IMG/VR virus record: IMGVR_UViG_3300037067_004979
Coordinates: 10,733 to 74,732 of that record
Strand: one strand, 5' to 3'
DNA from: a virus
Lineage: Duplodnaviria; Heunggongvirae; Uroviricota; Caudoviricetes
DNA: 64,000 bases
Made by a program: the position numbers and the translations under genes. The notes beneath the pieces were generated by a model that ran no database searches, had not been told where the DNA came from, and saw nothing but the letters and a program-made list of their open reading frames with translations. Position 1 is the first letter of the stretch, and every line of letters begins with the position of its first letter. Positions 43,589-62,147 of this stretch are shown in pieces.

Positions 43589-44270
43589 ATTTAGAGGTAA
43601 GTCAAATAGTGGTGTTTTCTTTTTTAAGGGTAAACCCTATCAATATTACAATCATACATATAATGCTGTTGGTTTAAATGAAAGAACTATAGAAATACCA
43701 ATAATTAATGGCTACTTTGAGAAATACAGAGGAAAAGATGTATTGGAAATAGGACACACTCTTGGACACTATCTAACTAAATATGATCATGATATAGTTG
43801 ATAAGTGTGAAGAAGCTCCTGGGGTAACCAATGTTGATATAGTAGATTTTGAGCCCACTAAAAAATACGATTTAATATTTTCTATATCTACTATGGAGCA
43901 TGTTGGTAATGATGAGGCTTTTGAGGAAAGCCCAGATAAAGATAAGGTTAAAGTGGCCTTTGATAGGTGTGTATCTTGGTTAAAGCCAGATGGAGCATTT
44001 ATCTGTACTTTCCCACTAGGGTTTAACTATCACCTTGATACTAGAGTTATGAATGGTGAAATAAAGTTTGATGAGTTGTATTGTTTTGGTAGGGAGAGTT
44101 CTACTATCAATCATTGGATATTTACCTCCTTTGAAACAGCTTATAAATCAGATCTTAAGGTAATGAGGACTTCTATTAAAGATATAAATGGTGTTTTACA
44201 GCCATTTACAATATGTTTCTTTGTAGCTATAGGTATAATTTATGGAGGAAATAATGACAGAGAAGAATAA
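43572..44270 (+). CDS. putative SAM-dependent methyltransferase-fold protein
   Basis: DVLEIGHTLGHY, DLIFSISTMEHV, LKPDGAFI resemble MTase motifs I-III; tentative. Confidence 0.4.
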   Translation: MIETFRFRGKSNSGVFFFKGKPYQYYNHTYNAVGLNERTIEIPIINGYFEKYRGKDVLEIGHTLGHYLTKYDHDIVDKCEEAPGVTNVDIVDFEPTKKYDLIFSISTMEHVGNDEAFEESPDKDKVKVAFDRCVSWLKPDGAFICTFPLGFNYHLDTRVMNGEIKFDELYCFGRESSTINHWIFTSFETAYKSDLKVMRTSIKDINGVLQPFTICFFVAIGIIYGGNNDREE

Positions 44271-44913
44271 ACATATTCCATGGAATAGAGGTCTTACTAA
44301 GTATTCAGACAACAGAATTATGAAAGTTTCTATTGAAATGTCCGGGAAAATTAGATCAAAGGAACACAGTTTAAATATTTCTCTATCTAAAATTGGTGTA
44401 AAAAATATAAAAAAATCTATACAAATGAAAGATAATTCTAGTGGTTCTAAGAATTTATTCTATGGTCATCATCATACACAAGAAACTAAAAACAAGATTA
44501 GTATTGCAAATAAAGGTAGAAGATACCCAGGCAGAAAATTACCCTCTCTTATGGGAAATAATAACCCATCTAAACGTCCGGAAGTAAGATTATTGATAAG
44601 TAAGAGAGTTAGTGAAACTCATTGGAATACTTCCTTAGAGAAAAATCCTAACTGGAGAGGAGGTATATCTTTTTTACCTTATAAACCTTATAGACATCTA
44701 AAAAATCAAATTATTCATAGAGATAAATCTGATAGATGTCTTTTATGCGGAGAGGACACTAAGGTCCGTGTTATTCATCATATAGATTATATTAAGGTAA
44801 ATAATAATTTAAATAATCTATGTATATTATGTAATAGTTGTAATTCTAAAGTTAATAAAAATAGGTCTTATTGGGAAAACTATTTTGTTGGGAGGATTAA
44901 AGATGGAGTATAA
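44242..44913 (+). CDS. HNH homing endonuclease (AP2-like IPWNRGLTK)
   Basis: IPWNRGLTKYSD; CLLCGED...HHIDY...N...CNSCN HNH motif; AT-rich insertion in glycan cluster. Confidence 0.6.
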   Translation: MEEIMTEKNKHIPWNRGLTKYSDNRIMKVSIEMSGKIRSKEHSLNISLSKIGVKNIKKSIQMKDNSSGSKNLFYGHHHTQETKNKISIANKGRRYPGRKLPSLMGNNNPSKRPEVRLLISKRVSETHWNTSLEKNPNWRGGISFLPYKPYRHLKNQIIHRDKSDRCLLCGEDTKVRVIHHIDYIKVNNNLNNLCILCNSCNSKVNKNRSYWENYFVGRIKDGV

Positions 44914-45910
44914 ATTTACTTCAGAAGTACAAATGAACTATGAACACAGTAAGAAAAAATTAATTTCTTGTATATCTGGGGTTAATGGACAAGATGGTTC
45001 GTTTTTGGCTGAAATATTGTTAGAAAAAGGGTACGAAGTACATGGGATACTGCGTAGAAGTAGTGTTTCTAATACAAAAAATATAGATCATATAAAGAAT
45101 AATATATACTTACATGTGGGTGATGTAAATGATTCTAATTTTATTAATACTATACTCTATGATATACAACCAAATGAGTTTTATCATTTAGCTGCTCAGA
45201 GTCATGTCGGGTTAAGCTTTGATATCCCCATTTATACAGCTGAAACTGTTGCTATAGGTACATTAAATGTTCTCGAATCTGTAAGAAAATATTCCCCATT
45301 CACTAAAATATATTATGCGGGGACTTCTGAGTTATATGGCTCAGCTAAACCTCCTCAGAATGAAAATACTTTAATGCATCCCAATAGTCCATATTCTATA
45401 TCAAAGTTATTTGGTTTTGAGATGTCTAGATTATATAGAAAATCATATAATTTATTTATATCATGTGGCATACTTTTCAACCACGAATCTGAACGCAGAG
45501 GTGATGAATTTGTAACACAAAAAATTGTTAAGGGGTTGATAAACTGTAAATTAGGCAAACAAAAAAAGTTATACTTGGGCAATCTAGATGCTAAGAGAGA
45601 TTGGGGTTATGCAAGAGATTACTGTGAAGCTATGTGGATGATGCTTCAGCATGGAGAAGCAGATGATTTTGTTATAGGGACTGGAGAATCTTATTCAATA
45701 AGAGATTTTTTAAATGTTACTGGAGACTATGTTAAGATAGATTGGAAGGACTATGTTGAAATTGATTCTAATTTATTCAGACCCACTGAAACTGAGTACC
45801 TATTGGCAGCTCCCGGTAAGGCCTTCAGTAAGTTGGGTTGGAGACCTAAGGTTAGATTTGAACAATTGGTAAGAATTATGGTTGATGCACAGATAAATTT
45901 GGAGGTATAA
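44903..45910 (+). CDS. gmd: GDP-mannose 4,6-dehydratase
   Basis: ISGVNGQDGSFLAEILLEKGYEVHGILRRSS (Rossmann GxxGxxG), YSISK, catalytic region; start moved to ATG 44903 after GGAGGATTAAAG. Confidence 0.75.
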   Translation: MEYKFTSEVQMNYEHSKKKLISCISGVNGQDGSFLAEILLEKGYEVHGILRRSSVSNTKNIDHIKNNIYLHVGDVNDSNFINTILYDIQPNEFYHLAAQSHVGLSFDIPIYTAETVAIGTLNVLESVRKYSPFTKIYYAGTSELYGSAKPPQNENTLMHPNSPYSISKLFGFEMSRLYRKSYNLFISCGILFNHESERRGDEFVTQKIVKGLINCKLGKQKKLYLGNLDAKRDWGYARDYCEAMWMMLQHGEADDFVIGTGESYSIRDFLNVTGDYVKIDWKDYVEIDSNLFRPTETEYLLAAPGKAFSKLGWRPKVRFEQLVRIMVDAQINLEV

Positions 45911-47474: not shown

Positions 47475-48968
47475 ATGGCAACAACCTTTCTGGTACCAAA
47501 GAATAATGCTGCTACAACTCTAAATGGGGATATAAATAACTCTGTAACCTCAATAGTGGTGACAGCTAGCTCTGTGTTTCCAACTACCTATCCATTTCAT
47601 ATCACAATTGATAGCGAGATCATGGAGGTTAATAATAATAACACAGGGACAAACACACTCACAGTTGAGGCCAGAAATGGTGATGCAGCAAAGTGTGAGG
47701 GTACTGCTGCAGCAACACACTCAAGTGGGGCTGTTGTTAGGTTAAATATCACAGCAAAGGCTATCAGTGATATCAGTACTGCAGTAAATACATTAGAGGG
47801 CTGTGTTTATCCAAGTGGTTCTACTTTTCCAACTGGTTCTACCGGTATGCTCTTTACACACTCTGTTACTGGAAGAAGTATCCTATATGAGTATGATGGT
47901 TCTTCGTGGATACCTTTATATTCTATTGGAGCCATGACGGTTTATGTTGATTCTACTGATGGAACAGATGATAGAGACCATGGTACTGCAGTAGATGCTT
48001 CAGCATTTAAAACTATACAATATGCTATAAATCAAATACCGCCTATATTTACTGGTAATGTATCTATTTATATAGCTGCTGGTACATATGCTGAAAGTAT
48101 TGGTGTTGTGGGTAAAACACCAAGTGGTTCTTATACTATTTCAATATATGGAACATTAATTGCTCATGATGCTGAAAATCAAATAATGGATGGTGATGGT
48201 GTAAAAGGAGCAACTACTTCTCAATCTTCAGTACATAAGCATGGTCTATCTGCTGATCATTATCAGAATCAATTAATTAAGTTTACAAGTGGTACAAATA
48301 ATAATTTATATAGAATAGTAGACAGTAATACTACTACAGATTTAATTTTGGTTGGTACCACATTATCAGCACAGCCGTTAACTGGTGATACCTTTACTAT
48401 CTACGATTGGGGAACTATAATAACAACCGTGACTATATCAGATTCACAAAATTTTGTTTATTTATATGATTTAAAGGTAGATGCTAGTTCAGCAGCAGCA
48501 CTTACGGTCGGTTTGAATGCTGTGGTTTATATAAATCGTTGTTGGTTTAATGGCTCTGGATTTTTATTTTATTCACAACGGAGAGGATCAATAAAACCAT
48601 ACTGGTCATTTCTTTCTTCTACCACAGGTAGCGTAGTTGGATATCATTGTGAAAATTCTCTTTGTGAATATAAAAGTTGTAAGGTTACAGTTACAAACGG
48701 TACAGGATTAACTTCTGCTAGTTGTTCATATGTAGATATTAATGCTTGTGTGATAGACGGTATTACGAAAGCAACTCAAGTAGGAATATCTTCAACTGGT
48801 GTTTCTTCATTTGTTTGTTCAGGTAGCCCTTATAATATTATCAGACATTTAGGAACAGGTGTAACTGCTTCTACAGGAGGTCAAGTTACAGGTACATCAG
48901 CTAATGTTTATACTGATAATACAGCAGATGAGTCTGCTACAGCGGCTTCATATGGATATATAGATTAA
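47475..48968 (+). CDS. putative tailspike/fibre with right-handed beta-helix (pectate-lyase-like) domain
   Basis: RBS TAGGAGGATGA; TIQYAINQIPPIFTGNVSIYIAAGTYAE; Thr/Ser/Gly-rich. Confidence 0.45.
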   Translation: MATTFLVPKNNAATTLNGDINNSVTSIVVTASSVFPTTYPFHITIDSEIMEVNNNNTGTNTLTVEARNGDAAKCEGTAAATHSSGAVVRLNITAKAISDISTAVNTLEGCVYPSGSTFPTGSTGMLFTHSVTGRSILYEYDGSSWIPLYSIGAMTVYVDSTDGTDDRDHGTAVDASAFKTIQYAINQIPPIFTGNVSIYIAAGTYAESIGVVGKTPSGSYTISIYGTLIAHDAENQIMDGDGVKGATTSQSSVHKHGLSADHYQNQLIKFTSGTNNNLYRIVDSNTTTDLILVGTTLSAQPLTGDTFTIYDWGTIITTVTISDSQNFVYLYDLKVDASSAAALTVGLNAVVYINRCWFNGSGFLFYSQRRGSIKPYWSFLSSTTGSVVGYHCENSLCEYKSCKVTVTNGTGLTSASCSYVDINACVIDGITKATQVGISSTGVSSFVCSGSPYNIIRHLGTGVTASTGGQVTGTSANVYTDNTADESATAASYGYID

Positions 48969-48976
48969 AGGGTTTT

Positions 48977-50128
48977 TTGATGTACAATGCTTACTTATAT
49001 AATGAAGCAGAATATAATAAACACTCATTTGGGGCAATTAAGACTACTGTTCTCATTGTCTCTTCTATATCCACACTCCTAAAAAACATAACAAAGAATT
49101 CAAATAGAGTAATTACATCTCTTATAACAGAAATGCATGGCTGTATAGCTACTATATTAAGAGCTATATTACTACAAGCTATTAATAGGAGTTCTAATAT
49201 TGAATTCAATAGATATCTAGATGTAATTACTGTTATGAGCTCTGTAATAGATATTCTCATTTACTATGGCAGATTAATCTTCGTAGAATTGATAATTAAT
49301 GGTGTGGATAGCCATACCACAAAATTTACTCGTATCATAGAAATATATGTTGATCTAATTCTCAACAAGATTCAACAGATAAATTTCAATATCACAAGAT
49401 ACTTAAGTATCATTATGTATACTGTGATCTATAGAATCATAGGTATAAATAGATTAATATTAATTGTCTTGAATATTCTAGATGTATTTAATAAGAAATA
49501 CGCAGATATTGAAGAGATAATCACAGCAGCAAAGGTAATGACTGCTAACAATGACTTTGTAATAAACTATAACAGAGACATAGATGATCTAATATATGCC
49601 GTATCTAACTTACTCTACAGAGGTAATCTGGTAAGAGATATAAGGGTATCTGAATTGATGGAATCTATGCTGATTAGATATATTAACATCAATAGAATCA
49701 GTGCAATAATATCTGTTATTGCTTGTATTGTATGGATAAACACTACCCTACATAGAATAATCACATCTAATCTATTGATATCACAGGTATTATCTAACTC
49801 AGTTAGATATATGAGATCAAGTGGGTTGATCATAAGGATGGAATCCAGATTAAGAAGAACATTACATGATATTGAGGTAATAATCATAACTGGTTTTGCG
49901 TTTATGGTTAGGATAACCAGGGGTTTTAGGAAATATCTATTCTCAATTGGTGTGTTAAGCCCAAGATTAACCAGGATATTAAACATAAAAAAGACGGTGA
50001 TAACTATTATTAAATTGGGGGTATTACCATTGTCATATTTTCTTAGTAGGAAGGGCTTGAAATGGATGAAATTCTGGGTTAGGGATTACTCTGTTAGTAT
50101 AAAGAAGACCTCAGTGAGATCATATTAA
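48977..50128 (+). CDS. Ile/Leu/Arg/Tyr/Asn-rich hypothetical protein (IRYN family member 1)
   Basis: MMYNAYLYNEAEYNKH N-terminus; extremely AT-rich. Confidence 0.45.
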   Translation: MMYNAYLYNEAEYNKHSFGAIKTTVLIVSSISTLLKNITKNSNRVITSLITEMHGCIATILRAILLQAINRSSNIEFNRYLDVITVMSSVIDILIYYGRLIFVELIINGVDSHTTKFTRIIEIYVDLILNKIQQINFNITRYLSIIMYTVIYRIIGINRLILIVLNILDVFNKKYADIEEIITAAKVMTANNDFVINYNRDIDDLIYAVSNLLYRGNLVRDIRVSELMESMLIRYININRISAIISVIACIVWINTTLHRIITSNLLISQVLSNSVRYMRSSGLIIRMESRLRRTLHDIEVIIITGFAFMVRITRGFRKYLFSIGVLSPRLTRILNIKKTVITIIKLGVLPLSYFLSRKGLKWMKFWVRDYSVSIKKTSVRSY

Positions 50129-50928
50129 TGACTACATATAATGATTATCTATACAATGAGGAAGTATATAACATACACCCTATAAGATATATTATCTCAT
50201 ATGTAAAATCACTTATTAATAAGATAAAGTTAATAATTCATGGTAGATGGTCAGAGGAATTTTTAATATCAGTAATTACCAGCGGGGTTTTAAGAAGGAT
50301 TGCGCCATCTAGCGTGCTATTTAATATTCTATTTAGATTAGATAATGTATTTATATTTAGAGGTTCAAGGTATGTTGAGTTTGATTTGATTGTATCTGTG
50401 ATACAATCAAATCTAAAAAAATCTAAGGCATATATTAGATATATACTTCTAGAGCTTATTCAGTTAAGAAAATTAGTGAGAAATATATCTATAATTAGGG
50501 GATATATATTATATATAACCTTTGCCTGGTATCATAGGGTAGAGAATACTATAGAATTCAGTAATATTCTGTATATCATTAACAAGATACATATTTATAC
50601 AAGATATATCAGGATAAATAATATATCTACTAAGCTATCTCTGGTATTATCAAGAAGATTATATAACTTTAGCCGTAAGATGGCTATTAGATACATATTT
50701 ATTATATATAAGAGAGTAAACTATACCGGTATATTCAGGTCTGTAATATCTTTGATATCATCAATTATAAAAATCTATGGCTCTAATGTTATTATTAAGC
50801 TAGTAGTTAGACGTGTTTGTTCACTTATAGGTCTGAAATATGGTGTTATAGAAGAACAGAGAAATACAAAATTTTTGGGAAGAGAGTATGTTGTGGATAT
50901 AAAGATAATATATGAGAGAGATTATTAA
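50128..50928 (+). CDS. IRYN family member 2
   Basis: MTTYNDYLYNEEVYNIH N-terminus paralogous to member 1. Confidence 0.45.
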   Translation: MTTYNDYLYNEEVYNIHPIRYIISYVKSLINKIKLIIHGRWSEEFLISVITSGVLRRIAPSSVLFNILFRLDNVFIFRGSRYVEFDLIVSVIQSNLKKSKAYIRYILLELIQLRKLVRNISIIRGYILYITFAWYHRVENTIEFSNILYIINKIHIYTRYIRINNISTKLSLVLSRRLYNFSRKMAIRYIFIIYKRVNYTGIFRSVISLISSIIKIYGSNVIIKLVVRRVCSLIGLKYGVIEEQRNTKFLGREYVVDIKIIYERDY

Positions 50929-51707
50929 TGACAACTGACACATTCTATGCTGTTGCTGATGATTCTATAGATAGATCAACTACAGAAGAAACTTGGGCTG
51001 CTAAGCATGATGCAGCCAGTGGTAGTACATTATATCAGTATGGATCTATAAATTTACTTTGTGGTTTGAGTGGTTATGATAGTCTTAGACGGTATATATG
51101 TACATTTGATACATCTTCAATTTCAGATACAGCTAGAATTACATCTGCTACTCTGTATATTAGGGGTTATTCTAAAACCAATGATCAAGCTGGGAGCTGG
51201 TTTCCTACCATAAATGTTGTTTCCTCAACACCAGCTTCAAATACAGAAATAGTAATTGGAGATTATGATCAATTAGGTACTTCAGCTCTTTCTTCAGCCA
51301 TAAGTTATTCATCATTTAGTAGTTCTGGCTGGAACAGCTTTTCTTTAAACTCTACAGGTTTGGATTTGATCAGTAAAGTTGGGTATACCAGACTAGGTAT
51401 TAGAGAAATGGTATATGATGCTGCGAATAGCCCTCCTTATATTTTTGGTGGAAATAGATTTGAATTTAGATTTTATGGTAATGAAAATGGCACCTACCCA
51501 ATACATTTGGAAGTTATATATTCCACACAAACCGATTATACAGAGTCTTTAAGCACACAAATTTTAAGGAGCTCTTCTTTTTCTAGAAAAGTGCCACCCA
51601 ATATTCATTGGTCTATGCCAGAAACTAAATCTGTGATAGATAGGGCCTCACTAAAAAAGAAAACAAATTATCATAGAGACTCAAAATATTGGAGATCAAG
51701 GTGGTAA
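50928..51707 (+). CDS. Ser/Thr-rich structural protein (fibre-like)
   Basis: 259 aa, ATGA overlap with previous. Confidence 0.45.
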   Translation: MTTDTFYAVADDSIDRSTTEETWAAKHDAASGSTLYQYGSINLLCGLSGYDSLRRYICTFDTSSISDTARITSATLYIRGYSKTNDQAGSWFPTINVVSSTPASNTEIVIGDYDQLGTSALSSAISYSSFSSSGWNSFSLNSTGLDLISKVGYTRLGIREMVYDAANSPPYIFGGNRFEFRFYGNENGTYPIHLEVIYSTQTDYTESLSTQILRSSSFSRKVPPNIHWSMPETKSVIDRASLKKKTNYHRDSKYWRSRW

Positions 51708-51710
51708 TGA

Positions 51711-52247
51711 ATGTCAGCTATTATAACAGTTTGTGAAAAGAACGGTGTTAGTGGTGTGGTATCATCTCTGGTTAATAACAACATCAGGTATTGTACATCT
51801 GATGCATTTAATCCAGGTACTCAATACACAATCCCAAATCCCACATCAGGTATACAGAGAAGTTACTGGAAGAGTATCTGTCTAGCCATATCTGGTACAT
51901 ACACACAGATTTCAAATATAAGATTATATATTATGGATCTGGTATGGTCTAATATAAATATATACATAGGTAGTCCTACTCTGACTACAGCACAGTATTC
52001 CATTGCTACTGGTACGCCAAGTGTATCTGGTAATGCCATGGTAGGTAGTCACCCAAACATAACCTCAAGAACATCATTATTTTCTTACACATCTAGTAAT
52101 ACATTTCTGGTTGATTCTAGTACATACACATATTCACCCTCTGTAATATACACCAAGCATGTTGTTTTACAGATGGAGGTTTTACCAGGTGTTTCTAATG
52201 GTCCTATTGCAGCAAAAAATTTAACCTGGATTTATGATGAAGTATAA
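51711..52247 (+). CDS. Ser/Thr-rich structural protein
   Basis: 178 aa. Confidence 0.45.
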   Translation: MSAIITVCEKNGVSGVVSSLVNNNIRYCTSDAFNPGTQYTIPNPTSGIQRSYWKSICLAISGTYTQISNIRLYIMDLVWSNINIYIGSPTLTTAQYSIATGTPSVSGNAMVGSHPNITSRTSLFSYTSSNTFLVDSSTYTYSPSVIYTKHVVLQMEVLPGVSNGPIAAKNLTWIYDEV

Positions 52248-52587
52248 GATTGGATGGCGTGTGTATTTTGATGATAATTCAGTACTCTCTCAATATAAGA
52301 TAAATTCATTAACTGAAACGTCATACTCAGAGGTAATAGAAAAGAGTAAAGCCTGTAATATAACTAGAATTGATTGGTTATATTACATTGGTATGGACTC
52401 CACAAATATTGAGATATTCTCTACTGTGGTTGAAGATGGGTCTGTTGCAGAAGTATTTAGTAGACACTATATTACCGGATCTAATGAGGTTATTGAATAC
52501 TGTGTTGCACTAAGTAAAAATGGTGTAAAGACAGTCTATTATATTTCACCAGATGGTAGTATCAAGACTGAAGTAACAAATGGATAA
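52234..52587 (+). CDS. hypothetical protein
   Basis: 117 aa. Confidence 0.4.
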   Translation: MMKYKIGWRVYFDDNSVLSQYKINSLTETSYSEVIEKSKACNITRIDWLYYIGMDSTNIEIFSTVVEDGSVAEVFSRHYITGSNEVIEYCVALSKNGVKTVYYISPDGSIKTEVTNG

Positions 52588-55500
52588 CATTGAAAAGTTA
52601 AGACAGATAAAAAAAGACAAGCGAGACGCTGTATTTAAAAAACCCAATGTAGTAGGCTTGTCTGTTGGTTATAAGGAAATACAGGGTATCCTAACTGATA
52701 CTCCGTGTATAAAGGTATTTGTCTCTAAAAAGATAGATAAGAAGAAAATCAAGAAGAGTGATCTAATACCAGAGTCAATTGATGGTGAGATGACTGATGT
52801 TATAGAGAGCATGCCAGAAGCTCTGGATGTTAGAACATCTAAGCAAAGACCTGCCTTTGGTGGTATTTCCATAGGACATCCAAGTATAACGGCTGGTACA
52901 CTTGGATGTTTGATTAATACTGGTGGCTCAAATTACATCATCTCAAATAATCACGTGTTAGCTGCTGTAAATACAGCAACCATTGGTGATTACATATATC
53001 AACCAGGTGTTTATGATGGAGGTACTGCCTCTGATATAATAGGCCGTTTAACAAAATTTGTACCAATAACTCTCTATGAAAATATAGTAGAGGATCCAAC
53101 TGTAAACTATGTTGATGGAGCATTGTGTTTACCAACAACTCAATCACTTGTAAATAACACAATCTATGAGGTAGGTACTTACTCAGGATTAGTTGTAGAG
53201 CCATACCTTGGACAGACAGTTACAAAATCTGGTAGAACCACAGGTGTTTCTGTTGGCACAGTCTCATCCATAGATTTTGAGGGCTGGGTTTCATACAGTA
53301 CACATGGTTATGGATATTTTGTTGATCAAATACAGGTTAGTGCTACAGTAGCTGGTGGTGATTCTGGTAGTGCTGTATTAGATAGTTCAATGGGGTTTGT
53401 TGGGCTTCTGTTTGCTGGTGGTGGTGGATATTATGTTGCAAGTAAATCTGGTCAGGTGTTTACTAGACTAATATATGGTAACTTTTCACAGTCTTCTATG
53501 GATTCAATCATAGGTGGTTTAGTACAAACCAATACAATGGATGCCTTTATAGGTACATATAACATGACTGTCATAACTCAGTATATGTCTGGGTTTAACA
53601 TAGATACATATACAGCATTGCGGTCAATTGTAAGAGATTCCAGTGGTACTCTTTGGTATGCAGATAAATTAGGTAGAGGGGCTGTTGGTGGAACCTGGGG
53701 TATTGTTAGAGTTTTTAACTCTGTTGATAATGGTGTTACCTGGTCTTATGAGAATTTAGCAGTGCCGGTTTTTCCATCTGGGGAGGGTATTGGTAATTTT
53801 TTCTATAATCCACACATAATCACCAATGGCCTAGATATATATGTTGTGGCATATGGATGGATTTTGCCTCACTATAATACATACCCAGTTGATTATGGTA
53901 TTTATGGATTTTATAGGAATCACACCACTGGTGTATGGAGTGGTCCTGAAGCTGTAGCATTAGCATCAGAAATAGGTATAAGCACATTTGGTAGTTATAC
54001 CATTGAACCAGCTGCAATATATGATGAGTTTGATAATATACATTTTGTCTGGTCAAATCTAGGCACCATACCATTTTATAGAAAAAAGAGTTCATCTGGG
54101 GTATTTTCTGCTATAGAAATACCAAGTGTTACTTACAAGGTACCAGGGGCTTTCTTTAATTCAGTGGCTCCATTAATCTTTATGGATAAAATTACAAGAG
54201 ATATATATCTAGTTATGCCTGGTTGTATCTATCCAAATTCAACTCCCTTTGTAATTTATTGTTTTGTTAAGGATTACATTACAAATCAATGGTCCACAGA
54301 GGTAGTGGATAGCTATCTAACAAATATATCTTTCTGGTCTTCTTGTATGGATAGTGATAACACCATACATGTTGTATATGGTGGTTCAAAGGGTAATCCA
54401 TATCTAGATATATACTATACAAAGAGAACTACATCAGCTGGGTGGTCTACACCCATAAAATTAGTTACAAATACAACGGGAGACGTATTTGATGCAGATA
54501 GTATATCATCTGATATAAATAACAATCTGTATGTTTTATATAATTCAAGATCTGGTGAATTACCAGACACCACAAAACCAACATTACACTTGATTAGATG
54601 TGTTTCTAATGTATGGCAAAGTCCAGAGATTATCATAGATAGTTCTGTTGGTGGTCATAGAGGTAGACTAATACATCAAAATACTCCAAATAATTATAAT
54701 TTGACAAAGAGTGGATATTATGGTAGTGCAGAAGATAGGATTGATTCTGGTACTATGACAGGATATTCAATTATGGCTATACCAGATAGTGCTATATTTA
54801 CTTCACAAACTACTAATTATACCAAGATAGTTGCAGCACCATTGATATTTTTAAATAGAATGGTTAGAAAAATTGCTGGTAAGAGAATAGAGAACATTAG
54901 ATTAATATTAACTAGAGTCTTGTCAAAACACACAAAGAAAAATGCAGAATTCCTTGTTGGTGTGTTGTCTTTTTATAATTTATTAACTAAGAAAGATAAA
55001 AATTCCCCAGAAGAATTCATAAGAAATTTTATAATCTCTATGAAGGTAATCCTTAATGATATATCTATAAATGAGATTGCTAGTTTCATTGTTGGTGTTA
55101 TAGTTAATCAAGTGAAGAAGAGGACTTCTGGTAAATTGATTACCAAACAGATATCACTATCAAAGAATATACAGAGTAGCCATGGTTTTATAAGATCTAT
55201 TCTATTACAATTAAAGACAAAGAGTTTAGAGACTAAGTTAATGGCTATATCAAAAACCATTCTTACCAGAATATACATGACAAACACTAGATTAATAAAG
55301 TTTATATCTAAATTAATTAGGATATCCATATATACACGTAATGATCTGGATTTTGATAATAAAAATATAAAGAGGTTTAGAGTAACTGGTTTTATTAGTT
55401 CAAAGATAAATAGATCAGTTAATTTGAGTAGTATCTATAAACCACCTATAATATTCAGTTCTGTTAAGAGATTGAATTGGCCTACAAGTGTTCTGATTAC

Positions 55501-55609
55501 ATTGTTATTTACCAGTGGTTCTAGACTTATTTATCTATATATAAAAGGCAGATTTATAAGTGTGTCTATATATCTTAACTCTAGCATGGATAGATTTTCT
55601 GCTATTTAG
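52580..55609 (+). CDS. 1009-aa multidomain fibre protein: trypsin-like serine protease + BNR/Asp-box domain + IRYN-like basic tail
   Basis: NNHVLAA (His), DGALCLP (Asp), GDSGSAVL (Ser) protease triad; SVDNGVTWSY Asp-box; last ~250 aa of IRYN composition. Confidence 0.55.
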   Translation: MDNIEKLRQIKKDKRDAVFKKPNVVGLSVGYKEIQGILTDTPCIKVFVSKKIDKKKIKKSDLIPESIDGEMTDVIESMPEALDVRTSKQRPAFGGISIGHPSITAGTLGCLINTGGSNYIISNNHVLAAVNTATIGDYIYQPGVYDGGTASDIIGRLTKFVPITLYENIVEDPTVNYVDGALCLPTTQSLVNNTIYEVGTYSGLVVEPYLGQTVTKSGRTTGVSVGTVSSIDFEGWVSYSTHGYGYFVDQIQVSATVAGGDSGSAVLDSSMGFVGLLFAGGGGYYVASKSGQVFTRLIYGNFSQSSMDSIIGGLVQTNTMDAFIGTYNMTVITQYMSGFNIDTYTALRSIVRDSSGTLWYADKLGRGAVGGTWGIVRVFNSVDNGVTWSYENLAVPVFPSGEGIGNFFYNPHIITNGLDIYVVAYGWILPHYNTYPVDYGIYGFYRNHTTGVWSGPEAVALASEIGISTFGSYTIEPAAIYDEFDNIHFVWSNLGTIPFYRKKSSSGVFSAIEIPSVTYKVPGAFFNSVAPLIFMDKITRDIYLVMPGCIYPNSTPFVIYCFVKDYITNQWSTEVVDSYLTNISFWSSCMDSDNTIHVVYGGSKGNPYLDIYYTKRTTSAGWSTPIKLVTNTTGDVFDADSISSDINNNLYVLYNSRSGELPDTTKPTLHLIRCVSNVWQSPEIIIDSSVGGHRGRLIHQNTPNNYNLTKSGYYGSAEDRIDSGTMTGYSIMAIPDSAIFTSQTTNYTKIVAAPLIFLNRMVRKIAGKRIENIRLILTRVLSKHTKKNAEFLVGVLSFYNLLTKKDKNSPEEFIRNFIISMKVILNDISINEIASFIVGVIVNQVKKRTSGKLITKQISLSKNIQSSHGFIRSILLQLKTKSLETKLMAISKTILTRIYMTNTRLIKFISKLIRISIYTRNDLDFDNKNIKRFRVTGFISSKINRSVNLSSIYKPPIIFSSVKRLNWPTSVLITLLFTSGSRLIYLYIKGRFISVSIYLNSSMDRFSAI

Positions 55610-55623
55610 AAAAATTTTGAATA

Positions 55624-55859
55624 CAATGATATACTCTATAAATAGGAGAGTATTAATTGGCAGAAATAGAAAACTGTCATCAATTCTTAAATATATCAAT
55701 ACACTATGGTCTGAGCACATACGTTTACCCAAGGTATATTATTTTAAATTTGAGAAGAGCTTAATTGTTATTAGAGCTTCTAATTCTGTGCAAAAATTAC
55801 TTGTACTAGGAAAAACCTGGGTCAAGTTCTTATATGATAATAAGACATTTAGATCTTAA
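55624..55859 (+). CDS. small IRYN-like basic protein (uncertain)
   Basis: Fills 270-nt gap; composition like IRYN family. Confidence 0.25.
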
Positions 55860-55882
55860 TGATAGGGGTTTTATAATTAACT

Positions 55883-56302
55883 ATGGCTAATGAGTTAAAG
55901 CATGCAGATCCAGGTGGTTCCTTACCAAAAGCTACATATACGAGTACAAGTGCCCATATAGCTGATGGACAGATTCTAGGGGATACATTTTATTTTAATG
56001 GTTCTACCTGGATCAGAAGACCCATAAATTATCAGAATGTAACTATTCAAACTGGTGGTACTTATTCTGTACAACTAAGTGATTTTACGGTTATTTGTAA
56101 CAATGCTACTGCAATTACAGTATCTTTACCAGCTGCCACTGGTACTGGAAGGATAATAGAGATAAAGAATATTGGGGAAGGTAATACCACAATTGATGGT
56201 AATAGTAGTGAAACAATTGATGGTGATTCTACACAGACATTATACCAGTGGGAAGGAATAAAAGTTGTGGATTATTCAGCTGGTGCCTGGATAGTACTAT
56301 AG
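55883..56302 (+). CDS. structural protein (fibre/baseplate-like)
   Basis: 139 aa, Thr/Gly-rich. Confidence 0.45.
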   Translation: MANELKHADPGGSLPKATYTSTSAHIADGQILGDTFYFNGSTWIRRPINYQNVTIQTGGTYSVQLSDFTVICNNATAITVSLPAATGTGRIIEIKNIGEGNTTIDGNSSETIDGDSTQTLYQWEGIKVVDYSAGAWIVL

Positions 56303-56311
56303 GAGATAATT

Positions 56312-57139
56312 ATGGCAGATATTCATGGGATAAAATGGATTGACACAGATGGTGTAGTAAGATCATTTGAAAATATTGGTGGTGATCCTTGTGTGGCGTC
56401 TCACGATTACTTGTATCAGATGTCACAAGGCAATGTACCGGGTCATTCTCCATGGTTCAAACTAGGTTATAATCCAGATGTAGGTACCACAGAAGAGGAC
56501 ATATGGCCTGTTGGTGGTATATATGTTCCTCCCTCAGCTGAAATGCAAATGAGAGTATTGGGAGCTAATGCTTCAGATACCTCAGCAGGTACTGGTATAA
56601 GGACAGTAAGGCTGAGATACTTAGATGATTTATACGCCGAAAAATATGAAGATATAACTCTCACTGGGACAACTCCGGTAAACACAGTGGCAACAGATAT
56701 TTTTAGAGTTCAAAGTTTTAGAGCTCTTACTGTTGGATCAAATGGTTCTGCAGTGGGTAATGTATACCTACAGAATACAGGTGGTACTACATACTATGGT
56801 CAAATATCTGCTGGAAGAACAAAGGCTAGGACAATATTTTACACTGTTCCAGCAGGAAAAGTCTTATACATAACCAGTGTTAAGTTTAGTGCTGGTTCTT
56901 CACAGTCAGGGAAGCATGTTGTTTTTACTACAAAGGCTACATATGATGATGCCACGGCCTCAGTGAATACCTTTTTTATGAGCTATCATGAAATGGGTGT
57001 ACAAGATGGGGCTTTTACAGTTGATCTAGAACTACCTACTAGGTTTCCAGCTACTGTGGATCTAAAAGTTAGTGCTATATCTGATAGTTCTGGTGCTGTT
57101 TGTACTAGTGCTCTAAGAGGTTGGTTAGAGACTGCCTAA
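56312..57139 (+). CDS. structural protein
   Basis: 275 aa. Confidence 0.45.
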   Translation: MADIHGIKWIDTDGVVRSFENIGGDPCVASHDYLYQMSQGNVPGHSPWFKLGYNPDVGTTEEDIWPVGGIYVPPSAEMQMRVLGANASDTSAGTGIRTVRLRYLDDLYAEKYEDITLTGTTPVNTVATDIFRVQSFRALTVGSNGSAVGNVYLQNTGGTTYYGQISAGRTKARTIFYTVPAGKVLYITSVKFSAGSSQSGKHVVFTTKATYDDATASVNTFFMSYHEMGVQDGAFTVDLELPTRFPATVDLKVSAISDSSGAVCTSALRGWLETA

Positions 57140-57148
57140 GGAGTAATA

Positions 57149-58246
57149 ATGCCTTTTCCTTATGACTGGCCAATAATATGGGACCATGAAGAGAGTGGTT
57201 CTTTTGAGATAGATTTTAATTCTGTAAATTCAAAGAGATCTATACTAAGTAGAATCAAAAATGCCTATCTGTATTATCCTTCTTACATAGATAGATTGAT
57301 TAATAGTAGTATAATAAAATCCTCTAATTTCAAAGAAACAGCCTTATATTTTAATGATAATTGGTATATAAGAAGCTTATCTAAATATCTGTCATTAGAA
57401 ACAAAGACACTAAAAGATATATTTCTACATTTTGTAACATCGTTAAATATTAGACCTGCTTTAAATAAAACAGCAAATTATGTAAAAGCTTCTGCAATAC
57501 AAATTTCTAATGGTATAGAAAATGTAATATCCTTAAGTAAGTCATTTATTTCTGAATTTAATTTTAGTGGCTTGTTAAACCGTAATATTAATATAAATAA
57601 TGTAATTATATCTACTGTAGGCTACTTTACTATGTATATAGAAGAGAGCTTTTTGCACAATGGCTTATATACATATATGAGAAATATCATATCTACTGTT
57701 AAAGTAGAACACAATATAGGTAGATTGTTGTTTTACTATAGGCTATATACCATAAATATAATAAGTGCCTTTCTTTTAATCAAGAACATAACCAAATCGT
57801 TTAAAGCATATAAGTTATTAAGTGGCATTAAAAATTCGATATCTTGGTTCTCTAGAAACATGTTATCTAATATTGTAACAGAGATAACACTAGGAAGGTC
57901 ATATAGAAAAATATCAGTTTATAGACTTGTATTACAAAATAGTATATCCAAGAAAATTGGGCAAGGCAAGAAACTTAGTGTTCAATTCTACCTGCTTAGC
58001 TTGAGAGAAGACTTAGCTGGATATTGGGAACACCCTGTTGTGTATATGATTACAAGATTAACTGTATTAAGAAATATAGTGGTTAATCAACTTTATAGTA
58101 TTAGAGTTAGTGTTAGTCCTAGAGAGTATAAGTATGCTAATATATATAAGAGATTCAGAATATATCTATTGGTGTTATCTAGTGTTATTTCTGGTATTAC
58201 AGATAAATACCTTAAGAGAATATTGAGTGCTGTATTTATTAGATAG
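57149..58246 (+). CDS. IRYN family member 3
   Basis: 365 aa of same composition (ILRNSYK-rich), AT-rich. Confidence 0.45.
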   Translation: MPFPYDWPIIWDHEESGSFEIDFNSVNSKRSILSRIKNAYLYYPSYIDRLINSSIIKSSNFKETALYFNDNWYIRSLSKYLSLETKTLKDIFLHFVTSLNIRPALNKTANYVKASAIQISNGIENVISLSKSFISEFNFSGLLNRNININNVIISTVGYFTMYIEESFLHNGLYTYMRNIISTVKVEHNIGRLLFYYRLYTINIISAFLLIKNITKSFKAYKLLSGIKNSISWFSRNMLSNIVTEITLGRSYRKISVYRLVLQNSISKKIGQGKKLSVQFYLLSLREDLAGYWEHPVVYMITRLTVLRNIVVNQLYSIRVSVSPREYKYANIYKRFRIYLLVLSSVISGITDKYLKRILSAVFIR

Positions 58247-58633: not shown

Positions 58634-59713
58634 TTGCTGCGTCCTGAGGCTGTATGGAAGTATTCAGCTGGTACACCAAGTGGAACATATACTGACTATA
58701 CAAACAATGTCAGAGTTAATTCAGATATAACTTTTTTGGGGTTAACCACAGACTACTTTTACATAGGTTTCCCAAGAAGATTTACTGGAATCTATGTTGA
58801 TTTATCAACAAATGGGTCATATTCTGGATTAACATATGAATTCTATGATGGTACTCAATGGGTCAGTTTATCTCTGATAGATACATATACATTTTCAGAG
58901 TCAAAGTATCTTAGATGGGTTATGCCAGATCAGTGGCAGAAATATAGATTATCAAGTGAGGAACCTCACGTAGGTATTACCCCACCAGACAGCACAGAGA
59001 GATATTGGGTTAGAGTTAATGCAGCAACATCAGTAACAACTGCTGCAGTGATCAGTAAGATAAGAGTTATACCCTATTCAATGTATACGACTCCAACAAA
59101 GGTATTTCAGATGCTCCAGTTTAAGAAGGACTTTGATCACAGCACCACTCCCAGTGATCTAACTGTAGAAGATATAATTAGAAGGGCTGAGGATAGGATA
59201 GATTATTTAACAACTAAATCATGGCGTGCAAATGTTATAGATAGTGAATTAGTATCATATAATAGATATGGTTTATTCCCAAGATATAAAAATTTTATAA
59301 AGATATATTCTATAAAGTTATGGAATGGTAGTGGTTGGACAACAATGACAGAGGGTAGAAATAATGATTACTTTATTGATTATGATAGAGGTATGATTTA
59401 TTTTACTAGACTATTCTTATTGCCAGCTTCCTATGGGATAAGTGGGAGATATTTTCACTATGGTTTTGGAGAATTCGCTTATTCATGTCAATTAAATTAT
59501 ATATATGGTAGAGATATAGAAAAAGATTCTCAGTTTTTTCTTGTTGAAGATGTAGCTACTAAGATAGCTGCTTTGGACATACTCAAACATCATGATTACT
59601 CTACAATGGTTGTTAGTGGTACAGATAAATTTGATTTACCATCAAAAGTTAGGTTTCTTGAAGAAGAAGTTGAGAAAAAGATTGAAGACTTGAAGGGTGT
59701 AACACTATGGTAA
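58634..59713 (+). CDS. hypothetical structural protein
   Basis: 359 aa. Confidence 0.45.
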   Translation: MLRPEAVWKYSAGTPSGTYTDYTNNVRVNSDITFLGLTTDYFYIGFPRRFTGIYVDLSTNGSYSGLTYEFYDGTQWVSLSLIDTYTFSESKYLRWVMPDQWQKYRLSSEEPHVGITPPDSTERYWVRVNAATSVTTAAVISKIRVIPYSMYTTPTKVFQMLQFKKDFDHSTTPSDLTVEDIIRRAEDRIDYLTTKSWRANVIDSELVSYNRYGLFPRYKNFIKIYSIKLWNGSGWTTMTEGRNNDYFIDYDRGMIYFTRLFLLPASYGISGRYFHYGFGEFAYSCQLNYIYGRDIEKDSQFFLVEDVATKIAALDILKHHDYSTMVVSGTDKFDLPSKVRFLEEEVEKKIEDLKGVTLW

Positions 59714-60504
59714 TATGTAAGATTTGTGGACAGAAAATGAAAAGATTACAATCTCATTTAAGAATTCATGGGATTAATTCTATTAAATATCTTGAAAAAT
59801 TTCCAGGTTCAGAAATTGAATCAATAGAAACTAGAAATTTGAGAACTGGTATTTTAAGAAAATACTGGGATAGTAATGATTATAGATCTAAGTTGAGTGT
59901 TGTCCATATGGGAATAAAACCTTCAAAGGAATCTATCATAAAAAGAACAAATTCAAGGAGACGTAATGGTTGGTATTCTGATAGAGATAGTACAGTAGCT
60001 AAGATATCTGCTGCAAATAAATCACAGGTACCATGGAATAAGGGTTTAAGAATAGAAGATCACTCATCATTAAAATCTTGGCACGAAAAAATGAAAAAAT
60101 ATTATGGTGATCAAGACTGGATAGAAAATAGACAGAGAAGAATCAAACATTCAGGTATAGGTAAGAGTGGTTTTAGAGAAGATATAGGACACTTTGTCAG
60201 ATCTACTTGGGAGGCAAATTTTGCTAGATGGTTAAGATATCTAGATATCCCATATATCTATGAGCCAAAGGGTTTTAGATTATCCAATGGTAAGGTATAC
60301 ATATTAGATTTTTGTATATATCCAGATAGTGATATACCAACTTATATAGAAATAAAGGGTTACAAGAATAATGAATTTATGGATAAATATAATTTATTTT
60401 GTAGTGATTATCCTAATATAGAAGTTGGATTGATCTGTTCTGATGATTACAGATGTATAGAAAAACAATGGTCTTCCAAAATAGAATTATGGGAGAAATC
60501 TTAA
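59707..60504 (+). CDS. homing-endonuclease-like protein (C2H2-like finger, VPWNKGL, PD-(D/E)xK-like C-terminus)
   Basis: CKICGQKMKRLQSHLRIH; VPWNKGLRIEDH; ILDFCIYPDSD...YIEIKGY (D...E-x-K). Confidence 0.5.
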   Translation: MVICKICGQKMKRLQSHLRIHGINSIKYLEKFPGSEIESIETRNLRTGILRKYWDSNDYRSKLSVVHMGIKPSKESIIKRTNSRRRNGWYSDRDSTVAKISAANKSQVPWNKGLRIEDHSSLKSWHEKMKKYYGDQDWIENRQRRIKHSGIGKSGFREDIGHFVRSTWEANFARWLRYLDIPYIYEPKGFRLSNGKVYILDFCIYPDSDIPTYIEIKGYKNNEFMDKYNLFCSDYPNIEVGLICSDDYRCIEKQWSSKIELWEKS

Positions 60505-61100: not shown

Positions 61101-62147
61101 ATGGGCTATGTGATTCGTGGAGAGAATTTTAAGGTAACCTATGCAGTGGAATCAGCGTATGGCACAGATCCTGGTACTGCAAGTCTGGTAAATTCATTTG
61201 GTGTGGTTCAAACTGCTAACATAACTGATCCACAGATTGATTACATGCCATTCTGGGGTATGAGTACTGGACAGTATAGAAACTGGTGGATTACCTACAA
61301 GGGTAAGATATCACTGGGTATGTCAATTCCAGATATAGTTCTTCTTAATGGTGCCCCCCTGTTTCTTCCACTAGGGTCTTGTACAACCACAGGAACAAAT
61401 CCATATACTCACACAATGGCAGAAACATATGATCTGCCAACAATAACAACTCATGTTACGTATACTGATACCAATGATGCTGACGTACTCATGAGAAGAT
61501 TCTGTGGGGGTAAGGTTGGTAGAGCTACATACTCTGCCACAGAGGGTGGATTCCTGACAATGGCTTTAGAGGATATACAGTTTAAGAATCTTTATCATAA
61601 TAAATCTGGACATACTTGGTATAGTGCAAATGTTGCAGATGTAACACCATCATATCCTTGCACAGAACCATACCTATTTTCATATGGGTCTCTTACACTA
61701 GATGGATCAGAGTTTGCTCGTGTCAAGGAATGGAGATTAAGTGTTGATAATGCTCTAGAACCAAAATACTATGTTACCAATGATGCAATTAGTCAATTAC
61801 CATATGAGCATAGAGAGGGTAGAAGGCAATATCAGATGTCAGTAACATGTGATATAGAGGATGCCGCCTTATATCAGGAACTAATTGACCAGGGTACATA
61901 CTCAAGTGTATATAAGGGATTTGTAGCAACAATGGTATTTACCAGGGGATCAAATGATACAATCACATTCACCACACCATCAAGTGGTTCAGTTGCTTGT
62001 GGTGGTGGTAATATGGGATGTTTAATAAAGACTGCACCTCACTCCATAGTGTCTGATCCTATAGTTCCAGTATCATTAGATATAATTTGTAGAAGCTTAA
62101 GCATTGTTTCTGTTGATGCAGTATCTACCTATAGTGGTAGTGTTTAA
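61101..62147 (+). CDS. putative major tail protein
   Basis: 348 aa immediately upstream of G/GT chaperone pair. Confidence 0.45.
   Translation: MGYVIRGENFKVTYAVESAYGTDPGTASLVNSFGVVQTANITDPQIDYMPFWGMSTGQYRNWWITYKGKISLGMSIPDIVLLNGAPLFLPLGSCTTTGTNPYTHTMAETYDLPTITTHVTYTDTNDADVLMRRFCGGKVGRATYSATEGGFLTMALEDIQFKNLYHNKSGHTWYSANVADVTPSYPCTEPYLFSYGSLTLDGSEFARVKEWRLSVDNALEPKYYVTNDAISQLPYEHREGRRQYQMSVTCDIEDAALYQELIDQGTYSSVYKGFVATMVFTRGSNDTITFTTPSSGSVACGGGNMGCLIKTAPHSIVSDPIVPVSLDIICRSLSIVSVDAVSTYSGSV

Follow-up and report, generated by a model that had tools for sequence, protein, structure and literature searches.

Coding AT-rich open reading frames in a tailed virus as proposed stalk modules of fibre-like proteins, built on a 20-residue repeat

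A 64,000-nucleotide (nt) stretch of DNA from a tailed virus (Caudoviricetes; IMG/VR record IMGVR_UViG_3300037067_004979, positions 10,733 to 74,732) contains a group of long, AT-rich open reading frames (ORFs) of low complexity, which an initial annotation made from the sequence alone had described as a family lying among tail-fibre genes. Below, "the window" means this whole stretch, and ORF coordinates are window positions. The odd ORFs are all present as described, and they are indeed unlike ordinary globular structural proteins. They comprise three standalone ORFs, here called A, B and D, together with the C-terminal part, or tail, of an ORF of 1009 amino acids (aa) and a short tail on the 259-aa protein encoded directly after ORF B (Table 1). 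The interpretation that we favour, with moderate confidence, is that the AT-rich ORFs are translated and drifted forms of a stalk or anchor module made of 20-aa repeats, which would form the C-terminal part of fibre-like virion proteins or would occur as standalone, headless versions.

The odd ORFs are very probably translated. Not one in-frame stop codon occurs in any of the odd segments, as against 33.1 expected from composition-preserving shuffles in ORF A, 25.4 in B, 22.7 in the tail of the 1009-aa ORF and 32.7 in D. The probability of zero stops is about 1e-10 to 1e-15, which bears out the earlier remark that such open stretches are improbable by chance, and the remaining five frames carry 4-60 stops each. 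Codon usage was checked with a model fitted to 30 ordinary window genes and scored with stop codons ignored. The annotated frame was best in five of five segments, by +0.05 to +0.20 nats per codon, and both alternative frames scored negative; the advantage for ordinary window genes is +0.25 to +0.31 nats per codon. Furthermore, synonymous choice in the odd segments is as in normal genes, with ATA making up 0.55 of Ile codons (0.52 in normal genes) and AGA 0.74 of Arg codons (0.65). A non-coding reading of these segments is excluded by the zero stops, the in-frame codon signal, the synonymous choice and the two indels described next.

The indels, the strongest part of this evidence, come from a near-identical strain (L043, a 31.8-kb contig from Logan SRR18595300), which was compared with the window over 13.9 kb. 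The two sequences differ at two places and by no substitutions, and both differences are indels inside odd segments. In ORF B, the strain has lost 6 nt in frame (50348-50353). At 55600 it has two additional bases, AA, which join the 1009-aa ORF to the small ORF that follows it, giving a protein of 1093 aa (P0135) that ends ...KTWVKFLYDNKTFRS. Because the 2-nt insertion restores the 1093-aa frame, the small ORF is best understood as the displaced C-terminus of the tail. The initial annotation had placed a possible small ORF at 55624; an ORF is indeed there, starting at ATG 55626 with no Shine-Dalgarno sequence visible upstream, and it is not an independent gene. The 2-nt deletion in the window thus shortens the protein to 1009 aa and removes its C-terminal end, so that the window carries either a natural frameshift variant or an assembly error. 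More generally, the indels at 55600 and 50348-50353 could be real variation in stalk length or phase, or they could be assembly errors.

Tails of the same kind recur in other viruses, where they are joined to globular heads. The trypsin-like protease domain of the 1009-aa ORF (NAL1_N, phrog_20754) has many homologues, several of which also carry inteins or LAGLIDADG domains, and among these P0002, P0003, P0004 and P0013 have long, odd, repetitive tails that cannot be aligned with one another. The closest homologue found is P0002 (locus L001), which is 39% identical to the N-terminal half of the 1009-aa ORF and has a 405-aa tail; L001 is partly syntenic with the window, with common neighbours of 177/178 aa and 139/141 aa. 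A closer, syntenic relative is L002 (NCBI JBGGHD010000809.1), in which a flanking 359-aa protein is 63% identical to that of the window. Four consecutive L002 genes of 875, 425, 214 and 885 aa each encode a head followed by a tail, the tails being about 720, 260, 50 and 280 aa long and rich in Ile, Leu, Lys, Arg and Ser, as are the odd ORFs. The L002 heads are lectin/DUF4082-like, or an "LRPNAxGD" domain, or protease plus DUF4082-like. The comparison with relatives that the initial annotation called for therefore gives a frame that is kept in the near-identical strain and tails of like kind in L001, L002 and P0002/P0139/P0140. Between P0140 and P0002 neither stops nor frameshifts have arisen, and the substitutions number 10 in the 405-aa tail as against 25 in the 736-aa head, so the tail does not evolve faster than the head at short range.

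The tails begin right after the globular head, at a junction with the consensus x-Y-[TDEV]-[KR]-S-x-[TS]. The junctions read AYSKSAS, NYTRSFS, AYTKSLS and NYTNSLS in the L002 tails and AYTSSLS in P0002. In the window, the 259-aa protein has DYTESLS (DYTESLSTQ), and junction alignment places the start of its tail at DYTESLSTQILR (aa 203, nt ~51534) and its end at ...NYHRDSKYWRSRW. This short tail aligns over its full length with that of the 214-aa L002 protein (34% identity, 53 aa, E 0.01, an E value that refers to a very small database). The tail of the 1009-aa ORF, about 260 aa long, starts at aa 746 (nt 54815) with the junction NYTKIVAAP. The feature is partial in the standalone ORFs: only a remnant in A (EYNKHSFG) and in B (VYNIHPIR), and a junction-like NSKRSILSRIK at aa 27-37 of D, which also has a PREYKYANIYKRFRIY stretch near its C-terminus. 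The N-terminus of ORF A, MYNAYLYNEAEYNKHSFG, is similar to the last strand plus junction of the head-tail fusions, and its C-terminus is ...KFWVRDYSVSIKKTSVRSY.

ORFs A and B resemble each other at both ends. The near-identical N-terminal motif reported in the initial annotation is confirmed (15 aa, 67% identity, E 0.009), and a C-terminal stretch of 19 aa is also common to them (47% identity). When all 340 window ORFs are considered, a post-hoc pattern, KF.{1,2}R[DE].{0,1}Y, occurs only at the C-termini of A and B, and by eye the end of the 875-aa L002 protein (KFIREDY) fits it too. A and B show order-dependent similarity with a z of 4.4 above shuffles, and in Smith-Waterman comparisons of window segments with the L002 and P0002 tails, 14 of 16 scored above shuffles. 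D gives z 6.0 with the tail of the 875-aa protein and z 4.1 with that of P0002; A against the L002 tails gives z 3.3-3.6 (3.6 with the 425-aa protein), and the tail of the 1093-aa protein against that of P0002 gives z 3.1. On such sequence comparisons, the window ORFs appear weakly homologous to the AT-rich tails of their relatives. The word "family" can thus be kept in a loose sense, for ORFs with a common 20-residue period and, in the case of A and B, with like termini.

The period itself is plainest in viruses with a higher GC content. A scan of viral contigs with a profile of the protease yielded 36 loci, two of which (L039 and L019) encode long tails made of crisp repeats. In a 1962-aa protein of L039 the unit is (L/Y)xR(S/T)KxxLLGLKxTxxRxxx, with anchors exactly 20 aa apart and about 25 units. 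L019 has an acidic variant, LAEGFKLSDSPSGQINAFNx, in 14 units at a spacing of exactly 20 aa. When the L039 array was used as a query, 13 more proteins came to light, with varied heads (BNR propeller-like, lectin-like and FN3-containing). The crisp examples are L039, L019 and P0122-P0134. Apart from the acidic L019 variant, the repeat consensus is ...TRSKTALLGLKxTAxRxIxL..., again exactly 20 aa, and each unit of the 13 proteins has two near-invariant Arg residues and an LLGL core. These proteins have a common junction, Q-x-Y-x-R-S-x-T-A-L-L-G-L. In P0123, P0124, P0126, P0127, P0128 and P0130 the protein closes with two or three 11-residue units of the VLTSQYRKIKV type, which are also clear in L039 and looser in P0129 and P0131.

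The same period can be detected in the AT-rich ORFs when they are taken together. BLOSUM autocorrelation summed over lags 20, 40 and 60 for A, B, D and the tail of the 1093-aa protein is 20.9 (z 6.1; reached in 0 of 400 shuffles), and among base periods from 8 to 31 that of 20 stands well clear of the rest; no such signal appears in four control genes. Single ORFs are weak at lag 20, with z from 1.0 to 3.2 (3.2 for B). Hydrophobicity power at period 20 is 8.7 for A and 8.1 for the 1093-aa protein's tail. In L002, the tail of the 875-aa protein reaches z 6.0 at lag 20, and that of the 885-aa protein z 3.8 at lag 19. The 885-aa protein supplies a bridge between the two kinds of tail, in that its DUF4082-like head is 49% identical to the head that bears the crisp array in L039 (E 2e-47) and 43% identical to that of P0124 (E 3e-41). 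In all three proteins the tail sets in at one position, after ...FMFEEWG, whether it is AT-rich (L002) or crisp (L039 and P0124). The repeats are visible at the level of protein pattern only, as no DNA-level tandem repeats of note were found in the cluster. That the odd ORFs belong to this 20-aa-repeat tail architecture we regard as likely.

The composition of the tails follows that of the genome. The odd ORFs have a GC content of 0.265-0.30 (0.30 in ORF A), which is flat across codon positions (GC1, GC2 and GC3 about 0.24-0.33), whereas neighbouring genes have GC1 and GC2 of 0.34-0.50 and GC3 of 0.17-0.26. The sharp difference from adjacent genes noted earlier is therefore real, and the figure of about 25% GC given for the odd ORFs was slightly too low. 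Their residues include 12.6-18.4% Ile, 9.8-11.0% Leu, 8.4-12.4% Ser and 12.6-18.7% Lys plus Arg, and they are also rich in Asn and Tyr. Across five loci, tail composition tracks genomic GC and head composition does not. Locus GC, tail GC and head GC1/GC2 are 0.29, 0.21-0.22 and 0.41-0.52 in L002; 0.35, 0.29 and 0.43-0.45 in L001; 0.36, 0.27-0.30 and 0.42-0.49 in the window; 0.43, 0.40 and 0.45-0.47 in L039; and 0.51, 0.49 and 0.45-0.49 in L019. Equivalent structural positions are occupied by Ala, Leu, Gly, Thr and Arg in the GC-richer viruses and by Ile, Leu, Asn, Lys, Arg (AGA), Ser and Tyr in the AT-rich ones.

A simple way to account for these observations would be selection on a pattern (hydrophobic and basic residues, period 20, an open frame) rather than on residue identity, with codon positions 1 and 2 having drifted to the mutational (AT) equilibrium of the genome. 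Crisp repeats would be retained in GC-richer viruses, and an AT-rich virus would keep only the period, the hydrophobic/basic pattern and the ends. Such pattern-only selection would explain the flat GC1=GC2=GC3, the low complexity and the missing homologues. The tail of the 875-aa L002 protein contains block duplications, and together with the two indels of the near-identical strain these argue that the arrays probably also change by expansion and contraction.

The module, as we propose it, would consist of a junction after the head, a variable number of basic 20-residue repeats (pI 10-12) and a short conserved C-terminal end. It would serve as an extended stalk or spacer, keeping heads that bind carbohydrate or act as enzymes (lectin/DUF4082-like, BNR/sialidase-like or trypsin-like protease) at a distance from the particle, with the C-terminal end docking them to it. 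The types of head that were found, namely lectin/DUF4082-like, CBM-like, trypsin-like protease and those with a BNR/Asp-box motif, are ones that bind or cut surface glycans or proteins. Furthermore, arrays lie between heads and a C-terminal end or baseplate-type domain, or between globular domains, for which a stalk or spacer is the simplest reading. Among the four suggestions made in the initial annotation, "fast-evolving spacers" came closest, in that these sequences look like low-constraint repeat stalks between a head and a C-terminal end. For a permanent role of the tails as stalk or anchor we put the chances at about even. This function, incorporation into the virion, oligomeric state and fold are matters that we infer; what the sequences show is the coding status, the period, the recurrence of head and tail in relatives, the equivalent position of the crisp arrays and the way composition depends on genomic GC. 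ORFs A, B and D would enter such assemblies as subunits or partners that lack a head, which is the weakest part of the account.

Several results weigh against this interpretation. ORFs A, B and D lack a head, and neither L001 nor L002 showed headless counterparts of them. The window ORFs could not be linked directly to the crisp repeats by sequence or profile: a hidden Markov model (HMM) of three crisp units did not score the AT-rich tails of the window or of L002 above shuffles, and an HMM of the C-terminal 11-mers, run against all window ORFs, did not pick out the C-termini in question. The link to the crisp repeats rests on period, architecture, position and one orthologous head domain, and the window ORFs, which have the architecture and period in common with the module, are not demonstrated sequence homologues of the crisp repeat. 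Two crisp-tail viruses, L047 and L048, have genes of similar sizes to those of the window and no detectable protein similarity with it. A full HMMER scan of 1.84e9 cluster representatives with ORF A returned only ORF A itself. AlphaFold2 gave an uninformative all-helix model for ORF A alone (pLDDT 38), and for P0126 with 13 sequences a monomer with EEEEE-----EE--EEE, or three short strands, every 20 aa (pLDDT 35-48).

Other searches returned little. ORFs A, B and D and the tails had no informative Pfam or PHROG match at E<=0.01, the matches being to heads only; ORF D had one marginal match of 27 residues to phrog_24953, of unknown function (E 0.0036). ORF D is identical in two further assemblies. 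The 12-kb cluster had no megablast match among GenBank phages, a crisp tail had no tblastn match in that collection, the L039 protein had no relevant counterpart among PDB sequences, and the crisp repeat has no Pfam family. A literature search found nothing relevant on a 20-residue fibre repeat or on fibres with NAL1-type proteases. In searches based on neighbouring genes, the 275-aa gene alone had no relatives in viral contigs. A profile of the 359-aa gene gave one viral locus, which begins just downstream of the region of interest, nothing in genomes, and two short contigs in metagenomes.

The charge and hydrophobicity of the tails bear on the idea, raised in the initial annotation, of membrane-active or nucleic-acid-binding basic proteins, such as entry or ejection proteins or DNA condensers. 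The tails have a pI of 9.9-12.0 (9.9-11.0 for window segments, 10.0 for A), apart from the L019 array, as against about 5 for the heads, and contain 12-24% Lys plus Arg as against 4-7%. The basic pI of 10-11, a GRAVY of up to 0.43 and the richness in Ile, Leu and Val would suit that idea. The tails have no hydrophobic stretch of transmembrane length. The longest run free of K, R, D, E, H, N and Q is 11-15 aa in the four segments of the window and 6-17 aa in other tails, and the maximum 19-residue Kyte-Doolittle mean is 1.63-1.97, with few 19-aa windows passing 1.6. A membrane-active role accordingly finds no run of more than 15 uncharged, non-amide residues in the window segments (17 in any tail) on which to build, and an integral membrane protein is rejected for want of a segment of transmembrane length. 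Moreover, the module is fused to lectin-, sialidase- and protease-like heads, which are sensible only outside the particle, and the L019 array is acidic. That array (L019 12100-13000, aa ~745-1040 of 1048) has a pI of 4.4 and lies behind a protease plus DUF4082-like head, so positive charge is not universal to the module. We regard a membrane or nucleic-acid role as very improbable. As for secondary structure, a hydrophobic peak at 3.5 residues, the heptad spacing of alpha-helical coiled-coil fibres such as fibritin, is seen in A (10.5) and in the tails of P0002 (8.3) and P0003 (9.9) and not in D; the crisp arrays have only harmonics of 20 in their spectra, which do not separate alpha from beta; and beta-formers (IVYFWT) make up 36-44% of the window tails.

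A more substantial alternative is that the tails are assembly chaperones or scaffolds that stay outside the final virion and assist the acidic heads in folding, oligomerisation or docking, acting in cis when fused and in trans in the case of A, B and D, and that they are then cleaved off, possibly by the N-terminal trypsin-like protease of the 1009/1093-aa protein at the K/R residues found at fixed positions of the repeat. A and B come after a fibre gene and D after the 275-aa gene, where a fibre chaperone would usually be encoded; a protease domain is present in the cluster and on the same polypeptide; and the tails are rich in K and R, with the two Arg residues of each crisp 20-aa unit nearly invariant. 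Cleaved C-terminal intramolecular chaperones are also known for other fibres and spikes, the Peptidase_S74 domains of endosialidases and of T5 pb1 being examples. Nevertheless, Pfam and PHROG gave no match to Peptidase_S74, Tfa or another chaperone family, tails of up to about 720 aa are far above known chaperone domains in size, and most tail-bearing proteins lack the protease domain. The position of some arrays is a further objection. P0123, P0130 and L039 also have arrays that separate globular domains within a single protein. In P0122 and P0003 the array leads, with no 11-mers, into a baseplate-type domain resembling an N-terminal domain, which in P0003 has a weak match to phrog_22322, "tail protein". 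Both arrangements fit a permanent linker better. We judge the chaperone explanation to be rather unlikely.

The standalone ORFs could also be translated spacers of no function, derived from former head-tail genes and held open only for coupled expression of what lies downstream. The start of ORF B overlaps the stop of ORF A (TAATG) and B overlaps the 50928 gene likewise by 1 nt, so that stop and start overlap from A to B to the 50928 gene. Near-equilibrium composition at every codon position, a lack of homologues and the fact that both differences between strains are indels in odd segments would also be expected of such spacers. This explanation has to contend with a 20-residue period that survives, with the retention of both termini by A and B and a C-terminal motif found nowhere else among the window ORFs, and with the order-dependent similarity to the L002 and P0002 tails. 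ORF D has a Shine-Dalgarno sequence of its own (AAGGAG, in TAAGGAGTAATAATG) and is followed by a 39-nt gap rather than an overlap with the next gene. Finally, like sequence is fused in frame to heads both in the window and in relatives. Functionless spacers therefore seem to us distinctly unlikely.

Two other origins of the headless ORFs were considered. ORF D continues the frame of the 275-aa gene after a TAA stop and three codons, so that D might have been the split-off tail of that gene. This origin is rejected. Nine homologues of the 275-aa protein were inspected, the longest among them, and each ends at LRGWLE or no more than about 35 residues from it, any extra length being N-terminal; they are never fused to a tail; a D-like gene is absent from two inspected neighbourhoods; and D has its own Shine-Dalgarno sequence. 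For a frameshift fusion of the upstream 497-aa fibre protein to ORF A, no slippery site was found in the 37-nt overlap. The true start of A is most likely ATG 48980 (MYNAYLYNE...), which lies 7 nt downstream of AAAGGG, rather than the TTG of the ORF lister. A scan for promoters and terminators gave nothing above chance level.

Table 1. Features of the window mentioned in the text
Feature	Position	Strand	Remarks
ORF A	48980..50128	+	382 aa, standalone "tail-only"; start given by ORF lister, TTG 48977
ORF B	50128..50928	+	266 aa, paralogue of ORF A with common N- and C-terminal motifs
259-aa protein	50928..51707	+	globular head, then short (~55 aa) tail
1009-aa ORF	52580..55609	+	N-terminal trypsin-like protease (NAL1_N/phrog_20754), BNR/Asp-box-like middle, odd tail
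Displaced C-terminal tail end ("small ORF")	55560..55859	+	ATG 55626; +1 frame relative to 52580
ORF D	57149..58246	+	365 aa, standalone tail-type, own Shine-Dalgarno sequence
497-aa fibre-/tailspike-like protein	47475..48968	+	phrog_4577 "tail protein", E 3e-9; weak pectinesterase match
Two ordinary genes (139 aa, 275 aa)	55883..57139	+	between protease fibre and ORF D; 275-aa gene 56312-57139
Antisense ORFs opposite tails	48991-49260, 49615-49986, 55108-55329	-	
Major capsid protein	34474		
Glycosyltransferase, methyltransferase, GDP-mannose-4,6-dehydratase-like genes	39634-45910		between capsid gene and fibre cluster
Tail-tube-like protein	61101-62147		
Tail chaperone	62164		
Tape measure	62717		
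Protease domain of 1009-aa ORF	52580-53500		
tRNA-Pro(UGG)	16618-16694	+	
tRNA-Arg(UCU)	29883-29957	-	
tRNA-Ser(UGA)	31429-31515	-	
tRNA-Ile(UAU)	31516-31590	-	
Minus-strand ORF	31599-32387	-	
Segment of negative GC skew	~27-33 kb		27000-33000, looks like an inverted segment
Homing-endonuclease-like ORFs	10023-10796, 44242-44913, 59707-60504		
530-aa ORF with intein splicing domain	13059-14651		Pfam Intein_splicing, E 7e-9
1006-aa protein, then 398-aa protein	4340-8549		1006-aa protein with DRAT-like ADP-ribosyltransferase domain, E 4e-16

The position of the cluster downstream of the major capsid protein gene and upstream of those for the tail tube, tail chaperone and tape measure makes the placement "among tail-fibre genes" an assumption, and on this gene order the appendages could belong to the head or neck and need not be distal tail fibres. 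The 497-aa protein directly upstream of A has an ordinary composition (GC1/2/3 0.42/0.49/0.17), and in the middle part of the 1009-aa ORF the sequence NSVDNGVTW is what we take to be a BNR/Asp-box motif. In L046 (834-3224) a homologue of the 275-aa protein is encoded two genes after the major capsid protein, which suggests that this family is head-associated, as a decoration protein, rather than a tail-fibre component. Genes for glycan-related enzymes lie between the capsid gene and the fibre cluster, and the corresponding place in L002 has a radical-SAM enzyme, a methyltransferase and an epimerase; this suggests that virus-encoded glycan synthesis or modification is linked to the appendages.

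A few further observations concern the tails less directly. The ORFs antisense to the tails reach 306 aa in L002 (5987-6907, minus strand), and one antisense frame has 4-13 stops where 23-33 are expected. That frame is poor in stops because stops there need Tyr, His or Gln codons on the sense strand, and the antisense ORFs are most likely by-products of sense composition, not genes. The codons most enriched in the odd ORFs are ATA (85 per 1000 codons, against 39 in normal genes) and AGA (56 against 30), and the virus encodes tRNAs that include tRNA-Ile(UAU) and tRNA-Arg(UCU). A genuine tRNA-Ile with a UAU anticodon is uncommon. The viral tRNAs may serve the whole AT-rich genome and not the odd ORFs in particular. 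Between ~27 and 33 kb the GC skew is negative and minus-strand tRNA genes and a minus-strand ORF occur, as though this segment had been inverted within a genome that is plus-strand elsewhere.

Elsewhere in the window, the tail-tube-like protein is 28-29% identical to those of the haloarchaeal siphoviruses HHTV-2 and HCTV-2, and the protease domain is 33% identical to a putative serine protease of Aeropyrum coil-shaped virus; these sequence identities hint at an affinity to archaeal viruses. Homing-endonuclease-like ORFs, with HNH- or Vsr-like motifs recognised by eye and HNH_3 in L047, occur in the window and also in L002 (13062-13787), L004 (1-663) and L047 (8956-9507 and 11991-12572), and their sites in the structural operon differ between relatives. 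The one at 10023 is the window's other AT-rich trough (GC 0.257) and is unrelated to the tail family. An intein splicing domain is found in a 530-aa ORF. After the 1006-aa protein with a DRAT-like domain comes one of 398 aa that weakly matches the anthrax lethal factor domain (E 1e-6), and both may be effectors delivered by the virion.

The closest functional analogues of the proposed stalks are phi29 gp8.5, T4 Hoc and SPP1 gp12, and the window cluster lies between capsid and tail-tube genes. In T4 Hoc the C-terminal domain binds the capsid and the adhesive Ig-like domains are N-terminal, which is the same orientation as that proposed for the stalk module. All three proteins bind the capsid at one end and have a long, repetitive stalk and a distal part that adheres to carbohydrates, and such fibrous decoration proteins are accessory and dispensable for capsid stability (PMC7602432, the wording of which is inconsistent on the order of the Hoc domains). 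In contrast to them, the window stalks would have 20-residue repeats, a length of 50 to about 720 aa, a polybasic composition and a C-terminal position, with no sequence or family match to the three, and their attachment to the head, as opposed to the neck or baseplate, is putative.

There is also a likeness to viral fibre shafts. The triple beta-spiral repeats of adenovirus and reovirus shafts are about 15 residues long, whereas the period of the module is exactly 20 aa with two near-invariant Arg residues per unit, and its structure is represented by a low-confidence monomer model only. Shafts are also normally N-terminal to the receptor-binding head, and the stalk module is C-terminal. The features in common with these shafts, and with the C-terminal triple-stranded beta-helix of T4 gp5 (PMC4576200), are short tandem repeats, a conserved hydrophobic pattern, a conserved turn Gly, a copy number that sets the length and otherwise low conservation. 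Chaperones of the Tfa, gp38 and Peptidase_S74 types resemble the odd ORFs in lying directly downstream or at the C-terminus of fibre proteins and in being often poorly conserved; the odd tails differ from them in having no family match, in being much longer, repetitive and polybasic, and in occurring also between domains. Repetitive fibrous stalks of virion appendages are thus known, and this particular module, which appears to be undescribed, is distinguished by its exact 20-residue period, Y-x-[KR]-S junction, two Arg per unit, C-terminal position and terminal 11-mers, together with a copy number from about 2 to about 35 and an extreme plasticity of composition.

A bolder extension of the stalk interpretation, which we think unlikely, is that the module works as a universal plug-in docking system, with selection on little more than period, charge and length. 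A head of any type (lectin, sialidase-like or protease) would then become a virion appendage on fusion to a polycationic stalk of 20-residue repeats, stalk length (50 to ~720 aa) would be tuned by indels and block duplications, the headless ORFs A, B and D would co-assemble as fillers or partners, and the protease may trim the Lys/Arg-studded stalks. If so, a long protein would be kept in frame for hundreds of codons, with residues evolving almost neutrally towards the base composition of the genome.

The stalk module is not a new biological principle. If the favoured interpretation is correct, it would be a recurrent and unannotated building block of viral fibre and decoration proteins, one that has no Pfam, annotated PHROG or PDB entry and of which cultured phages gave no example, and the simple rules that define it (junction, period of 20 aa, C-terminal end) would let annotators recognise "ORFan" or "low-complexity" genes beside receptor-binding genes and separate heads, which confer specificity, from stalks. 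Such genes would resemble non-coding DNA to composition-based gene finders. They would also provide a natural example of a protein whose composition drifts with genomic GC while it remains functional (tail GC 0.21-0.49 over five loci). Finally, in a group of large uncultivated viruses with some affinity to archaeal viruses, the heads (protease, BNR- and lectin-like), together with the glycosyltransferase and methyltransferase neighbours, would point to glycan- or S-layer-directed adhesion.

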